From NCBI GenBank assembly GCA_041690035.1, contig JBDNFC010000060.1, positions 12,503 through 76,502 on the forward strand: a stretch of 64,000 nt of DNA, read 5' to 3'. The DNA comes from Bacteroidia bacterium (GTDB taxonomy: Bacteria > Bacteroidota > Bacteroidia > NS11-12g > UBA955). Positions 6,537-62,605 of the stretch are shown here, one piece after another (positions within the stretch are counted from its first letter, which is position 1; the number at the start of each line of letters is the position of its first letter). Position numbers and translations under genes: made by a program. The notes beneath the pieces were generated by a model. That model was not told the origin of the DNA. It did no database searches and saw only the letters and a program-made list of their open reading frames with translations.

Positions 6537-6659
6537 GCCACAAAGGTATTGTTTTCTCTCTAATTTGTCTAAAAAAGCTCATTTTTATCAGCGAGAGGCA
6601 GTACTTTAAAAAAAATGGTAAAAATGCTAGCAATAATCAATTATCTTTGCAGTATAGTT

Positions 6660-7205
6660 ATGAAATCTATTTTTTATAAATCAATCAGAGCAGGCATAAT
6701 GATTATGGCATTTGCGTTATTTGCATGTAATACGCAGAAAAAAAACCTCAAAAATGATTCTCAAACCATCAATGAAGAGCTTAAAAATCATGAAACCGCA
6801 GCTGAACTTACTTTTTATGATTGGAACACAGGCTACCTTAAAGCCAAGCGATTAAACAAAATTTTATTAGTAGATGTTTATACAGATTGGTGTTACTATT
6901 GCAAAGTAATGGACAAAAACACTTATAGTGATAAAACAGTAATAGATTCATTAAATAAGAATTTTGTATGCGTAAAATTTAATCCGGAAATAAAAAACGA
7001 TTCACTTGTTTTTGATGCTACTGTAGTAAATAATAAGGCATTGCTAACTTTTTTATTTGATAATAGAAGCAATGGTTTTCCTACCACCACCTTTTGGATA
7101 AACCCGAGTAAAAGCGAAAAACTAGAAGTAGTGCCCGGCTATATGGAGCCAAAAGCATTTATAGGGCTGCTCAACGAAATAGTTACAAAGAAAAAAGCCA
7201 GTTAA
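6660..7205 (+). CDS. Thioredoxin-fold lipoprotein (thiol:disulfide oxidoreductase-like)
   Basis: It has a lipobox (AFALFAC), a CxxC active site in VDVYTDWCYYCKVMD, and the surrounding thioredoxin-like context. The ORF track's alternative start is 6615. Confidence 0.65.
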   Translation: MKSIFYKSIRAGIMIMAFALFACNTQKKNLKNDSQTINEELKNHETAAELTFYDWNTGYLKAKRLNKILLVDVYTDWCYYCKVMDKNTYSDKTVIDSLNKNFVCVKFNPEIKNDSLVFDATVVNNKALLTFLFDNRSNGFPTTTFWINPSKSEKLEVVPGYMEPKAFIGLLNEIVTKKKAS

Positions 7206-29207: not shown

Positions 29208-29411
29208 CTAATTTGTTTTGTTGGAAGTTTTATCTTGCCAATATCTTAGCACAGAATCAGCTTTTTCTTTATCAGATTTTTGGATATTTTCAATCATCCT
29301 ATCCGATTCTTCTTCTGTTTTTTCATTGCTTTCAGAATTACAAGCAGATATAAACATACCTAACAAAAATAAAAAATAAAGGCTATTTTTCTGGTTCATT
29401 TTCTGAATCAA
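29208..29411 (-). CDS. Small acidic lipoprotein
   Basis: It has a lipobox (MFISAC). It is the second gene of a tandem pair, and its start overlaps the end of the preceding lipoprotein gene (ATGAACCAGAAAAATAG). Confidence 0.5.
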   Translation of the reverse strand: MIQKMNQKNSLYFLFLLGMFISACNSESNEKTEEESDRMIENIQKSDKEKADSVLRYWQDKTSNKTN

Positions 29412-29622
29412 TTAGGGCCTCTTCAGCTTTTTTTGCCTCGTCCTCTTCCATCATTTTTTTCAATTCTTCTTCTCCTTGATTCAACTCATTTTGTATAGCA
29501 GTATCATTATCTATAACATCGCTCACATTTGATTGGTCTACGGCATCATTATTACCCTTACTGCTGCAGGCAGAAAATGTGATTAACGCAAAGGCACTTA
29601 GAATGATTATTGTTTTTTTCAT
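29383..29622 (-). CDS. Small acidic lipoprotein
   Basis: It begins MKKTIIILSAFALITFSAC, which contains a lipobox, and has a Glu/Asp-rich tail. Confidence 0.55.
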   Translation of the reverse strand: MKKTIIILSAFALITFSACSSKGNNDAVDQSNVSDVIDNDTAIQNELNQGEEELKKMMEEDEAKKAEEALIDSENEPEK

Positions 29623-29656
29623 AATTTATAAATTTATTTATTTGCTGCAATAATAA

Positions 29657-57215: not shown

Positions 57216-57375
57216 TTACAATATTTTATTTGCATTACAAAAAAACCACAAAATTTAAGAATAGGCAACTCTTTTTTTGAAATCTATAATATAATACTAA
57301 AATTAAATTAACTTTATTAATAATAATTTGGTTTATTGAACATTATTGTTTTAATTTGTGTTTAACAATTTAAAA

Positions 57376-57600
57376 ATGAAAAAAATGAAAAAAATGAATG
57401 TTTTAGTAATTATTGCTATCGCAACCCTAAGTTTAGTTGCTTGCAAAAAAGACAGAGTATGCGAATGCACAAGTGATGGGAAAACTTTTAAAGTTACTTT
57501 AGTTGATGCAACTAAACGTCAAGGCCAAGCCAATTGTGTAAGCACAACTAGTGATAATGGAAATGGCACTGTAGATAAAGAAGAATGTAAACTAAAATAA
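57376..57600 (+). CDS. Cys-rich mini-lipoprotein, paralog A
   Basis: It has a lipobox (LSLVAC), then CKKDRVCECTS...C...C. The start lies inside an ATGAAAAAA-ATGAAAAAA-ATG repeat. Confidence 0.6.
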   Translation: MKKMKKMNVLVIIAIATLSLVACKKDRVCECTSDGKTFKVTLVDATKRQGQANCVSTTSDNGNGTVDKEECKLK

Positions 57601-57611
57601 TTAATCATTAT

Positions 57612-57830
57612 ATGAAAAAATATATAACTTTATCAATTATCGCCTTTGTCTCTACTTTTTTCTTGTTTAGTTGTAAAAAAGATAGGGTATGTGAATGCAC
57701 CTCTGGCTCTCAAACTTCTAAGATCACATTTAATGATGTGTCTAAAAGAAATGCAAAAGATGCTTGTGTTTCAAGATCTTTTGATGTTGGAAATGGCCAA
57801 AGTATTAAATTTGATTGCAAATTAAAATAA
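57612..57830 (+). CDS. Cys-rich mini-lipoprotein, paralog B
   Basis: It has a lipobox (LFSC) and CKKDRVCECTS...C...CKLK, with the same Cys spacing as paralog A. Confidence 0.6.
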   Translation: MKKYITLSIIAFVSTFFLFSCKKDRVCECTSGSQTSKITFNDVSKRNAKDACVSRSFDVGNGQSIKFDCKLK

Positions 57831-57846
57831 AATATTAAATCGGCAT

Positions 57847-57883
57847 AAAAAACGCCTGAAAATTATTTCAGGCGTTTTTTTTA
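57847..57883 (+). terminator. Rho-independent terminator
   Basis: The hairpin AACGCCTGAAA-atta-TTTCAGGCGTT is followed by TTTTTTTT. Confidence 0.7.
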
Positions 57884-57894
57884 TGTAAAATTGC

Positions 57895-58830
57895 ATGATG
57901 TTTAATAACAAAATACTTATCCACTCTTTAAGTGCTTTATTGGGAATATTATTTATTTTTTCTGGTCTTTCTAAGTATTATCCTATTGAACCCTTTGAAT
58001 TTATTATAGTAGAAACTGGATTTGCAAGTTGGAAAGCAGCTGTAATTATAGCACGTTTTATTATAGTGGTAGAAATTGCTTTGGGTTTTTTATTGTTATT
58101 TTCTTATCAGTTAAAAATCATGAGCAGAATTGCTTTTGTACTTTTAACGATTTTCACGCTGCACTTATTATTTACCATTGCTTTATACGGTAATAAAGGC
58201 GATTGTGGTTGCTTTGGTGAAATATTACCTATGTCACCTTTGCAAGGTAGTATAAAAAACTTATTTTTAATTTTAATCAGTTATTTTTTAATAAAATCTA
58301 AATATCAATGGTGTTTAAGAATCAAATATATTCCTTTTTATATATTTACTTTATCGTTTGCGTTTGTTTTTTCTCAAAATGCAGTAGACTTTAATTATTC
58401 TGAAAATTATTTGAATAAAAAATTTGAAAATTTCAACCTTAATCTCGATACCATTTATAACAACACTAACTACGAAAAAATAGGGCAGGCGAAAGAGGAT
58501 ATTAGAAATAAAAAACTCATTTTAGCCTTTCTAAGTTCAGAATGTAATCATTGCAAAATAGCCGCTAAAAAATTAGGTATTATCAAAAAGTTAAATCCTT
58601 TCATTCCATTTTATTTTTTTATTAATGGCGATGATGCAGATATCACGAAATTCAAAAAAGAAAACAAGATTGAAAACATTAATTCTAGTAAACTAAATGG
58701 CGAAACATTTATTCAGCTTGCAGGTATTCATTTACCCATTATATACTACTACAATAAAGGATTAATTGAAAAACAAGTAGATTATTACACCTTAGAGCAA
58801 TACCATATTGAAGAATGGTTAAAAAAATAA
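57895..58830 (+). CDS. MauE/DoxX-like membrane domain fused to a thioredoxin-like domain (thiol-disulfide oxidoreductase)
   Basis: It has four TM helices with a GDCGCFG motif and a C-terminal thioredoxin-like CxxC (LSSECNHCKIAAKKLG). Confidence 0.65.
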   Translation: MMFNNKILIHSLSALLGILFIFSGLSKYYPIEPFEFIIVETGFASWKAAVIIARFIIVVEIALGFLLLFSYQLKIMSRIAFVLLTIFTLHLLFTIALYGNKGDCGCFGEILPMSPLQGSIKNLFLILISYFLIKSKYQWCLRIKYIPFYIFTLSFAFVFSQNAVDFNYSENYLNKKFENFNLNLDTIYNNTNYEKIGQAKEDIRNKKLILAFLSSECNHCKIAAKKLGIIKKLNPFIPFYFFINGDDADITKFKKENKIENINSSKLNGETFIQLAGIHLPIIYYYNKGLIEKQVDYYTLEQYHIEEWLKK

Positions 58831-60394: not shown

Positions 60395-62605
60395 ATGAGC
60401 GCCAATAATAATTATATATTTAAGAAACTTAAAAAAGAAACAGCAGGCATTTTTATAGGACTATTGTTTTTAATATCAGTAACTAAGGTAGGTGCCCAAC
60501 CAAAATTACCTAATTTAGAAATTGGTGTGGCAGCCGACAAAACAGCTATAGCAAAAGGCGATATTATAATTGTAAGCATTACTGCCTCAGTGCCAAAGGG
60601 ATGTTATGTATATTCTACCAATATAAAATGCGAAGTAGGACCTCTTCCCCCAAATTTAACAATTACAAATATTGGAGGATTTGAGAAAGTGGGTGAGATG
60701 TATTCGGAAGGAGATAAAAGCATGATGGATGAAATTTTTGAATGTGAGGTTTCAAAATTTACTAAAACCGTTTTGATAAAGCAAAAGTTTAAAGTAATTA
60801 AACCCAGCGATGCACTTTCAGGTATAATAGAAGTGCAAATGTGCAGTGATGAGATAGGAGTTTGCCTGCCAAGAGAAAAAAAATTTACACTAAATTTTAC
60901 AAATAAAGATGGCTCTGAAGCTCCAATAATTATAAAAGAAGTAATTATCCCCAAAGAAAAAGAAAAATCGGATGATAACCCTGCGCCTATAGCAGATTCT
61001 GCAACCAAACAAGTTCAAGACACAAACATATTGCCAACAAATGGAGCAATTTACCTAAACGAAAAATCTTATGTTTCTAAAACACCAAGTGATATAGGTA
61101 CTTGCAGCGATCACCAAAAAAGCTATGAAGGTTCTACAATTTTAGATGATTTTAATAAAGGAGGCCTTTGGGGGCTTTTCCTTCTTGCCTTTATTGCTGG
61201 GTTGGCAGCATTAATCACACCATGTGTTTTTCCTATGATACCCATGACTGTAACCTATTTTTTAAAAAAAAGTAAATCAAAAAGTGGGGCAATTTTCAAT
61301 GCCCTTTTATTTGGCTTGTTTATCATCATTGTATACGAAATACTGGGATTAATTTTTGCTGTGGCATTCGGTCCAGAAACAGTAAATTACATCGCCACAG
61401 CTGCTTTGCCAAACATTATATTCTTTGCTATATTTTTGCTTTTTGCTTTTTCTTTTTTTGGTGCTTTTGAGCTCACGCTGCCCGCTTCGCTAACTACTAA
61501 ATTGGATCAAAAAGCAGATAAAGGAGGATATTTAGGAATTTTTTTTATGGCATTGACCCTTGCTGTTGTAAGTTTTTCGTGCACTGGCCCAATAGTCGCC
61601 ACTGTATTGGTGCAAAGTGCAGATGGTCAATTTATCAAACCCCTTATTGCAATGGGTGGTTTTGCATTGGCATTTGCGCTCCCATTTACACTTGCAGCTA
61701 TATTTCCATCATTGCTCAATGCAATGCCAAAATCTGGCGGCTGGCTAAATAGTGTAAAAGTATGCTTAGGATTTGTAGAAATAGCATTTGGACTAAAATT
61801 TTTAAGTATTGCAGATCAAACCTATCATTGGGGTATATTAGACAGGGAAATATACCTAGGTATATGGATTGTTTTATTTGCGCTCATGGGCATTTATTTA
61901 CTTGGGAAAATAAAATTTGCACATGATAGTGATTTAAAATTTCTTAGTATCCCACGGCTTTTATTTACCATACTTACTTTTACATTTGTCTTATACCTAA
62001 TACCTGGTCTTTGGGGTGCACCGCTAAAAGGACTAAGTGGGTATTTGCCACCGATGAGCACACAAGACTTTGTGCTTGGAAAAACAGAAAATAAAGAAGG
62101 CAATATTTTAGAAACCCCTTTATATGGCAATCAATTAGAAATTCCACATGGCTTGCAAGGCTATTTTGATTATGACCAAGCACTTTCCAATGCTGCAAAA
62201 TTAAACAAACCTTTGTTTTTAGATTTTACGGGACATGGCTGTGTAAATTGCAGAAAAATGGAAGAAAATGTATGGAACGACCCTCGCATTTTAGACATAT
62301 TGCGAAAAGAATATGTGGTGGTGTCTCTTTATGTGGATGATAAAGTGATACAATTGCCAAAAGAAGAATATTTTATTAGCAAAGTAACAGGTGATTTAGT
62401 AACCACCTTAGGTAAAAAAAATGCAACGATTCAGCAATGCCTTTATGGCATACTTGCTCAGCCACAGTATATTGTGATAGATAATCAAGAAAATTTACTT
62501 AATAGTCCTACCTATTCTGATTTTACAGAAAAGGCCCAAGATAATTTTTATGATTTTCTAAAAAAAGGGGTTCTCAATTATAAAAAAAGCGGTAGTGGTA
62601 AATAA
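60395..62605 (+). CDS. dsbD: Thiol:disulfide interchange protein DsbD
   Basis: It has an N-terminal periplasmic domain. The membrane core carries CVFPMIP and SCTGP, and the C-terminus has a thioredoxin CxxC (GHGCVNC). Confidence 0.85.
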   Translation: MSANNNYIFKKLKKETAGIFIGLLFLISVTKVGAQPKLPNLEIGVAADKTAIAKGDIIIVSITASVPKGCYVYSTNIKCEVGPLPPNLTITNIGGFEKVGEMYSEGDKSMMDEIFECEVSKFTKTVLIKQKFKVIKPSDALSGIIEVQMCSDEIGVCLPREKKFTLNFTNKDGSEAPIIIKEVIIPKEKEKSDDNPAPIADSATKQVQDTNILPTNGAIYLNEKSYVSKTPSDIGTCSDHQKSYEGSTILDDFNKGGLWGLFLLAFIAGLAALITPCVFPMIPMTVTYFLKKSKSKSGAIFNALLFGLFIIIVYEILGLIFAVAFGPETVNYIATAALPNIIFFAIFLLFAFSFFGAFELTLPASLTTKLDQKADKGGYLGIFFMALTLAVVSFSCTGPIVATVLVQSADGQFIKPLIAMGGFALAFALPFTLAAIFPSLLNAMPKSGGWLNSVKVCLGFVEIAFGLKFLSIADQTYHWGILDREIYLGIWIVLFALMGIYLLGKIKFAHDSDLKFLSIPRLLFTILTFTFVLYLIPGLWGAPLKGLSGYLPPMSTQDFVLGKTENKEGNILETPLYGNQLEIPHGLQGYFDYDQALSNAAKLNKPLFLDFTGHGCVNCRKMEENVWNDPRILDILRKEYVVVSLYVDDKVIQLPKEEYFISKVTGDLVTTLGKKNATIQQCLYGILAQPQYIVIDNQENLLNSPTYSDFTEKAQDNFYDFLKKGVLNYKKSGSGK

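Follow-up and report, generated by a model that had tools for sequence, protein, structure and literature searches.

Small four-cysteine lipoproteins encoded next to a MauE-thioredoxin fusion: a candidate client-plus-oxidase module of uncultured Bacteroidota

A 64,000-nt stretch of the Bacteroidia bacterium assembly GCA_041690035.1 (contig JBDNFC010000060.1, positions 12,503 to 76,502; hereafter, the window) was analyzed. It contains two tandem genes encoding very small cysteine-rich lipoproteins (mini-lipoproteins A and B), followed by a terminator-like hairpin and by a gene encoding a MauE membrane domain fused to a thioredoxin-fold domain (MauE-Trx). The results support a functional link between the mini-lipoproteins and MauE-Trx, since the pairing of their genes is conserved while the outer flanking genes change. 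Based on gene neighbourhood and active-site chemistry, the mini-lipoproteins are probably substrates of the enzyme. The explanation towards which we lean, with modest confidence, is a client-plus-oxidase module of uncultured Bacteroidota, in which the four-cysteine lipoproteins would be the preferred clients of the fusion. A first-pass annotation of the window, made without database searches, had suggested that the mini-lipoproteins could be substrates of a nearby oxidative-folding machinery; the connection with the fusion is borne out, and the substrate relation retains the strength of a probable deduction.

The pairing was assessed by a search with the enzyme only, using one genome per species. 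The search gave 199 matches, of which the best 80 loci were fetched; all 80 belong to metagenome-assembled genomes of uncultured Bacteroidota, with lakes, reservoirs, mires, and streams as frequent sources. Every open reading frame (ORF) of these loci, each approximately 8 kb long, was scanned with the mini-lipoprotein profile, and 75 loci had enough upstream DNA. In 64 of the 75 loci, one to four mini-lipoprotein genes were located upstream of the MauE-Trx gene on the same strand, and in 62 of these 64, the distance from the last mini-lipoprotein stop codon to the beginning of the enzyme match did not exceed 217 nt (median gap approximately 80 nt). The co-occurrence across genomes, which the first-pass annotation had proposed to look for, is thereby found. 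The pairing is kept across enzyme identities ranging from approximately 39% to 100%. As for the outer flanks, they vary by lineage: LysE, LysM glucosaminidase, and DsbD in the window's own lineage; MarC upstream in locus L004; NUDIX and MsrB proteins downstream in L008; IF-2 downstream in L010; a metallo-beta-lactamase-fold protein and TPM phosphatase in L212; MiaE and an MFS transporter in L215. The DsbD gene, earlier noted near the fusion and counted with its machinery, is indeed present 1.56 kb downstream (60395-62605); its adjacency is confined to contigs of the window's own lineage and lends no support to a role in the module, so that a link with DsbD was rejected.

Counting both strands, a locus contains up to five mini-lipoprotein copies, and only three matches in the 8-kb loci fall outside the upstream slot. 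Two of them are opposite-strand extras located just downstream of MauE-Trx (L059, 4926-5120 (-); L077, 4926-5147 (-)). The third, in L022 (2773-3003 (-)), lies approximately 1 kb upstream of MauE-Trx on the opposite strand and is the sole copy there. In addition, in the lineage of loci L008 (1906-3071 (+)) and L009 (1861-3026 (+)), genes for a NUDIX hydrolase and methionine sulfoxide reductase B (SelR) come after MauE-Trx on its strand; MsrB, too, acts in oxidative protein repair.

Both paralogous lipoprotein genes reported by the first-pass annotation exist in the window (Table 1). According to the BLASTP analysis, their products are 53% identical (E = 1e-22), and each has a short basic N-terminus followed by a hydrophobic stretch and a lipobox (LVAC in A). 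The earlier sizes of 72-80 aa hold for B and not for A: the 80-aa version of A begins at the GTG codon, and the ATG at 57385 is preferred because public gene calls on identical contigs use it and homologues begin with MKK. The mature parts start with CKKDRVCECTS and contain five cysteines, namely, the lipidated one and the four further ones described previously, two of the four being within the CKKDRVCECT motif; each mature part is 52 aa long and not about 55 aa. In the 72-aa protein B, the free cysteines occupy positions 27, 29, 52, and 69. Within the window's clade (loci L001-L021), A and B represent two orthologue lineages, with A-type sequences ('..KANCVS') always encoded by the first gene and B-type sequences ('..AKDACxS'; '..AKDACVS') always by the second. 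This fixed order indicates that the duplication is old and that both copies have been retained; they may have non-redundant roles or form a heterodimer.

Table 1. Coordinates of the mini-lipoprotein genes, the intervening hairpin, and the MauE-Trx gene with its domains and motifs in the window.
Feature	Position	Strand	Description
Mini-lipoprotein A	57385..57600	+	71 aa from ATG 57385; alternative starts ATG 57376, GTG 57358
Mini-lipoprotein B	57612..57830	+	72 aa; lipobox LFSC, residues 18-21
Intrinsic-terminator-like hairpin	57847..57882	+	A-tract, stem CGCCUGAAA/UUUCAGGCG, U-run
MauE-thioredoxin fusion	57895..58830	+	311 aa; five predicted transmembrane helices, then periplasmic thioredoxin-fold domain
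MauE domain	57910..58293	+	residues 6-133; Pfam PF07291
CGC (C104-G-C106), putative redox-active CXC	58204..58212	+	followed by F-G; TM3-TM4 loop
Thioredoxin-fold domain	58396..58827	+	approximately residues 168-311; TlpA/ResA/Mtb DsbE-DsbF type
CNHC (C217-N-H-C220), thioredoxin active site	58543..58554	+	family consensus CPHC

The hairpin that separates the mini-lipoprotein genes from MauE-Trx starts approximately 17 nt past the stop codon of gene B and has a GC-rich stem. The 73-nt stretch that contains it has a minimum free energy of -23.1 kcal/mol (z = -5.8), and none of 200 shuffled sequences was as stable, in agreement with the strong terminator read here previously. A hairpin with a U-run follows the last mini-lipoprotein gene in 66 of 67 loci, compared with 10 of 67 control stretches taken inside the enzyme gene. 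Approximately 15-30 nt separate the last mini-lipoprotein stop codon from the conserved hairpin, which closely precedes the enzyme gene. Given the short space left before the enzyme start codon, MauE-Trx would be expressed mainly by read-through of the terminator, with many lipoprotein transcripts made per enzyme transcript. As for promoters, the DNA upstream of gene A contains no exact match to the Bacteroidota -7 box (TAnnTTTG), and a sigma-70-type promoter scan was no better than with shuffled sequences. One match to TAnnTTTG (TAAATTTG, 57806-57813) is located within the 3' end of gene B, upstream of the terminator.

A single-sequence, word-indexed search for the mini-lipoproteins found four relatives only. 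A six-sequence profile compared with 1.84 billion cluster representatives retrieved 1,023 proteins at E ≤ 0.001, and the size of the family is approximately 1,000 clusters at 50% identity. A broader profile gave 577 clusters at 90% identity, all of them unnamed or hypothetical and none with a Pfam domain. When the two window proteins and 32 family members were scanned against Pfam and NCBIfam, no qualifying family was assigned, and the family libraries and literature searched contained nothing on the family or on its pairing with MauE-Trx. The novelty claimed at first pass is thus confirmed: the family is undescribed, and current annotation calls its members hypothetical. The PG1828 family (NCBIfam NF050142), a small triacylated lipoprotein of Porphyromonas gingivalis, was considered and rejected. 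It resembles the mini-lipoproteins in being a small Bacteroidota lipoprotein, but they are not its members: A scored 19.2 bits against a cut-off of 50, and B had no match. Weak matches to this profile were seen in 17 of the 32 members (signal peptide, lipobox, and first residues), those of other members scoring 13-25 bits and being mostly confined to profile positions 1-25, which correspond to the signal peptide and lipobox.

The sequences show the features of bacterial lipoproteins, namely, an MKK start, a hydrophobic stretch, and an (A/S)-C site with an invariant cysteine, and acylation is predicted. In the alignment of 117 members, the lipobox cysteine, K23, and the four further cysteines are invariant, and the lipobox cysteine is likewise invariant in a 32-sequence alignment. 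Each of the 117 mature sequences (48-64 aa) contains exactly five cysteines; their composition is 18.8% Thr and 13.0% Lys, and they show no enrichment in His or Met. Members that had lost a cysteine pair were sought in order to deduce the disulfide pairing, and none was found: 263 of 269 members keep all five cysteines, and in the remaining six, only the last cysteine column is unaligned. The ratio of nonsynonymous to synonymous substitutions (dN/dS, Nei-Gojobori method) was 0.05-0.59 over the 18 orthologue pairs for which it was computable and 0.05-0.19 in the window's clade. The first-pass proposal depended on conservation of the small ORFs as coding sequences; they are conserved and evolve under purifying selection.

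The AlphaFold2 model, based on 117 sequences, shows a confidently predicted mature domain (predicted local distance difference test, pLDDT, of 87-92 per block). Its elements are strand 23-31, strand 34-43, helix 45-51, strand 55-60, and strand 63-71, which corresponds to a beta-beta-alpha-beta-beta order. Both cysteines of the CxC motif are placed on one beta-strand; of the other two, one lies where the helix ends and one in the last strand. No similar solved fold was found for the mini-lipoprotein. Most of the family beyond the window's clade consists of very Thr/Ser-rich members with T-C-T-C-T in the first strand (L012-L091, e.g., L042, 3685-3921 (+), and L066, 3119-3925 (+)), for which dN/dS was 0.26-0.59. 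If both cysteines of this modelled strand face the core, the alternate threonines would line an exposed face and could bind a ligand, for example carbohydrate or ice.

The claim that a MauE protein with the GDCGCFG motif is fused to a thioredoxin CxxC domain is upheld by the profile and structural analyses. The N-terminal part of the 311-aa protein matches Pfam MauE with 78.7 bits (gathering threshold of 27; E = 6.4e-22), and the CGC loop of its GDCGCFG motif lies between helices 73-98 and 115-134. The AlphaFold2 model of the fusion (pLDDT 88.5) contains four core helices, a fifth transmembrane (TM) helix at residues 146-161, and a C-terminal alpha/beta domain, in which C217-N-H-C220 is located between strand 207-214 and helix 218-233. 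The C-terminal half matched no Pfam model, those of thioredoxins included; the modelled structure assigns it the thioredoxin fold. The best Foldseek match of the model was 1lu4, a secreted disulfide oxidoreductase of M. tuberculosis (E = 3e-4, probability 1.0), followed by M. tuberculosis DsbF, ResA, and TlpA (E of 1.5e-3 to 5e-3, all with probability 1.0). The NCBIfam BT_3928 family (NF045576) was rejected, as the score was 67.2 bits with a cut-off of 250 and the match covered only positions 6-157 of 358, i.e., the MauE half; literature searches on BT_3928, and on MauE combined with lipoprotein terms, gave nothing relevant.

In total, 54 full-length relatives of approximately 295-328 aa were found. 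Among the residues invariant in a 20-sequence alignment are K27, E60, C104-G-C106, G108, C217, H219, C220, and P281, the last being at the cis-Pro position. Among 86 distinct relatives, CGCFG is present in 76, CPHC in 64, and the wider pattern C-x-H-C in 83. Active-site motifs of the CPHC and CGHC types characterise the oxidases DsbA and PDI. A site of the C-x-H-C type therefore favours an oxidising role. As for membrane topology, basic residues are clustered in loops 69-72 and 135-145 and acidic ones in loop 29-45; these loop charges fit a predicted orientation with the N-terminus inside and with the CGC loop and thioredoxin domain in the periplasm.

Recently, two MauE proteins were reported to substitute for DsbB in E. 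coli (Gonzalez et al. 2026, bioRxiv 10.64898/2026.03.05.709764). According to the same work, the MauE active site is a CXC motif in the TM3-TM4 loop, usually followed by F-G; a conserved Lys in TM1 and a conserved Glu in TM2 are situated beside the predicted quinone site; and thioredoxin fusions account for 8.2% of InterPro MauE entries. The window enzyme has every one of these sequence features of the DsbB-like MauE: it shares with this type the Pfam MauE domain, the periplasmic CGC-F-G between TM3 and TM4, the TM1 Lys (K27), the TM2 Glu (E60), and a fusion with a domain of the thioredoxin superfamily. The enzymes assayed in E. coli by Gonzalez et al. differ from it in being non-fusions from Calditrichota and Thermodesulfobacteriota that are presented as generalists, whereas the window fusion, known from its sequence alone, has the fifth TM helix and a gene-order tie to undescribed lipoproteins.

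On the client-plus-oxidase reading, the module would work as follows. The tandem genes would encode small Sec-exported lipoproteins with approximately 52 mature residues, acylated on the lipobox cysteine. Their four invariant cysteines would be oxidised to two structural disulfides that lock the small beta-beta-alpha-beta-beta domain. This oxidation would be carried out by the fusion encoded just downstream, through its periplasmic DsbA-like thioredoxin domain (C-x-H-C). The CGC loop in the MauE domain of the same chain would then re-oxidise the thioredoxin domain and pass the electrons to a membrane quinone; the fusion would thus combine DsbB and DsbA in one chain. The terminator would allow the lipoproteins to be made in large amounts, with the enzyme encoded by read-through transcripts only. 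The folded lipoproteins would presumably stay on the periplasmic side, because they carry no surface-export signal of Bacteroidota.

The systems most similar to the proposed one are the following. By their mechanism, VKOR-thioredoxin fusions are the closest relatives. They and the DsbB/DsbA pair follow the same logic, in which a quinone-linked membrane oxidase re-oxidises a periplasmic thioredoxin-fold oxidase of the C-P-H-C type; they differ in using an unrelated membrane family and in being general systems without dedicated adjacent client genes. The closest analogy is provided by MauE/MauD, which mature the disulfide-rich MauA. In that system, as in the window, a MauE membrane protein and a thioredoxin-like CxxC protein are encoded together with a small cysteine-rich periplasmic client. 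The window, in contrast, lacks MauA, MauB, and MauG; the MauD counterpart is fused to MauE, the putative clients are unrelated four-cysteine lipoproteins encoded by tandemly duplicated genes, and a terminator precedes the enzyme gene. The locus was accordingly rejected as a mau cluster: the mini-lipoproteins have no qualifying Pfam match, and the neighbouring genes encode LysE, UMP kinase, LysM glucosaminidase, and DsbD.

Several points weigh against this reading. A degenerate DNA pattern, (A/S)CKKDRxCxC, retrieved 120 metagenome stretches, 107 of them with a family member by profile; among the mini-lipoprotein loci of this sample, which covers only members with the pattern, 65 had at least 600 nt downstream, and MauE-Trx was directly downstream in 25 of them (38%). 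The other approximately 62% are in varied, unrelated contexts. The link is therefore asymmetric, as the enzyme is rarely found without mini-lipoprotein genes and these are often found without the enzyme. On the enzyme side, 11 of the 75 loci have no upstream same-strand mini-lipoprotein gene; their scattered placement in the enzyme tree points to secondary loss or relocation. At its active site, the window enzyme has CNHC instead of CPHC, and thiol-disulfide exchange between the lipoproteins and the fusion is deduced indirectly. An earlier study, cited in bioRxiv 10.64898/2026.03.05.709764, proposed that MauE is a reductase, so that electrons may flow in the opposite direction. Finally, MauE may act as a general oxidase, in which case the enzyme would not be dedicated to the mini-lipoproteins.

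The last point leads to the first alternative, namely, that the fusion is a general envelope oxidase, a housekeeping DsbB plus DsbA, with the mini-lipoproteins as major or demanding clients linked to it for co-expression. MauE is argued to be a generalist disulfide-forming protein (bioRxiv 10.64898/2026.03.05.709764), and the frequency of thioredoxin fusions among InterPro entries agrees with this, as do the many mini-lipoprotein loci in unrelated contexts. In addition, neither a DsbB nor a VKOR gene was found in the 64-kb window, and the sole match to the MauE-Trx profile there was the gene itself. A general oxidase would have no obvious reason to keep one client family upstream, behind a terminator, in 64 of 75 loci while other neighbours change, and we regard this alternative as rather unlikely.

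According to the second alternative, the mini-lipoproteins would be functional partners of the enzyme and not passive clients; in its most novel form, they would be obligate lipid-anchored partners in a new kind of envelope redox system. Their cysteines would be redox-active or metal-binding (for example, a lipid-anchored CxC disulfide relay or a Cys4 metal site), and their redox state would be controlled by the thioredoxin domain, in the way that TlpA acts on ScoI and CoxB. The asymmetry described above fits an enzyme that needs the mini-lipoproteins; CxC is also the redox-active motif of MauE itself; the closest structural neighbours of the thioredoxin domain belong to the TlpA/ResA/DsbE class, including TlpA-ScoI complexes; and the fixed order of two paralogue lineages suggests non-redundant roles. 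Moreover, at least five metagenome loci have, after the mini-lipoprotein genes, not MauE-Trx but another membrane protein (227-244 aa) that carries a CP(F/Y)C motif and may be a second redox partner. The modelled cysteine layout, on the other hand, fits two structural cross-links better, His and Met are not enriched, the C-x-H-C site points to oxidation, and the copy number varies from 1 to 5 per locus. This partner role is considered improbable.

The CP(F/Y)C protein (e.g., L103, 2371-3102 (-); L112, 172-852 (-); L201, 132-815 (-)) has several predicted TM helices and a C-terminal CPFC or CPYC. It has no Pfam match, and hhalign gave only a weak alignment with the CPHC region of MauE-Trx (probability 12%). 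In eight metagenome loci without MauE-Trx (L137, 2126-3511 (+), and seven more), the mini-lipoprotein genes are located just downstream of a candidate dihydrolipoamide acyltransferase (E2), called from a lipoyl-domain-like sequence, and several other loci contain a convergent GAPDH-like candidate gene. Family members appear to have conserved secondary locations beside the E2-like and GAPDH-like genes.

The third alternative, raised in part by the first-pass annotation, is that the small proteins are secreted or surface disulfide-rich peptides (bacteriocins, signals, or antigens) and MauE-Trx is their maturation enzyme. Peptide-maturation operons are known for the succession of a precursor gene, a terminator, and an enzyme gene. 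The order of mini-lipoprotein genes, terminator, and MauE-Trx shares this layout, and the proteins are small, cysteine-rich, tandemly duplicated, and diversifying (dN/dS up to 0.59 in the Thr-rich clade). The invariance of the lipobox cysteine and the lack of the surface-export signal argue against this alternative. In Bacteroidota, this signal is C-X-K-(D/E)2-X, and KD alone failed to export the SiaC reporter (PMC5080379). None of the 117 family members has K-(D/E)2; the mature part usually starts with C-K-K-D-R/Y/H and contains one acidic residue at most in this stretch. Judging by the N-terminal residues, the mini-lipoproteins most likely face the periplasm, with some doubt left by the conserved K at +3 and D at +4. 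As to neighbours, no conserved transporter, peptidase, protease, modification, or immunity gene was found near the mini-lipoprotein loci. MauE-Trx alone recurs in many loci as the next downstream gene of the same strand; the other neighbours are varied housekeeping genes, and the commonest of them, an upstream acyltransferase, occurs in only eight loci. Surface exposure and a bacteriocin or signal role, as first suggested, thus find no support, and the peptide explanation as a whole is very improbable.

Inherited synteny without functional meaning, to which the origin of all loci from one phylum would lend itself, was already disfavoured and is hardly credible, since the pair is kept over the whole range of enzyme identities while both outer sides differ and mini-lipoprotein genes are so rare outside the upstream slot.

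If the client-plus-oxidase reading is correct, the module offers concrete candidate clients for MauE, for which no natural client has been established outside methylamine dehydrogenase. MauE was proposed as a common bacterial disulfide-forming membrane protein only in 2026, and the question of the targets of MauE oxidases is now directly testable with two or three small genes. The analysis also draws attention to an abundant and large family of small proteins, with a self-contained enzyme encoded alongside in many uncultured Bacteroidota, of which a large share come from freshwater.

Two other lipoproteins encoded in the window were considered. The small ORF at 29386-29625 (-) has an FSAC lipobox and a very acidic mature part without further cysteines; in spite of a weak profile match (E = 0.004), it was rejected as a family member and regarded as an unrelated acidic lipoprotein. 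The first-pass annotation had also mentioned a thioredoxin-fold lipoprotein at 6660-7205 in connection with the module. Nothing connects this gene, 50 kb away, with the mini-lipoproteins or the fusion. The lipoprotein itself exists, with corrected coordinates of 6615-7205 (+), an LFAC lipobox, and a WCYYC motif, and it matches Pfam Thioredoxin_7 and DUF255.

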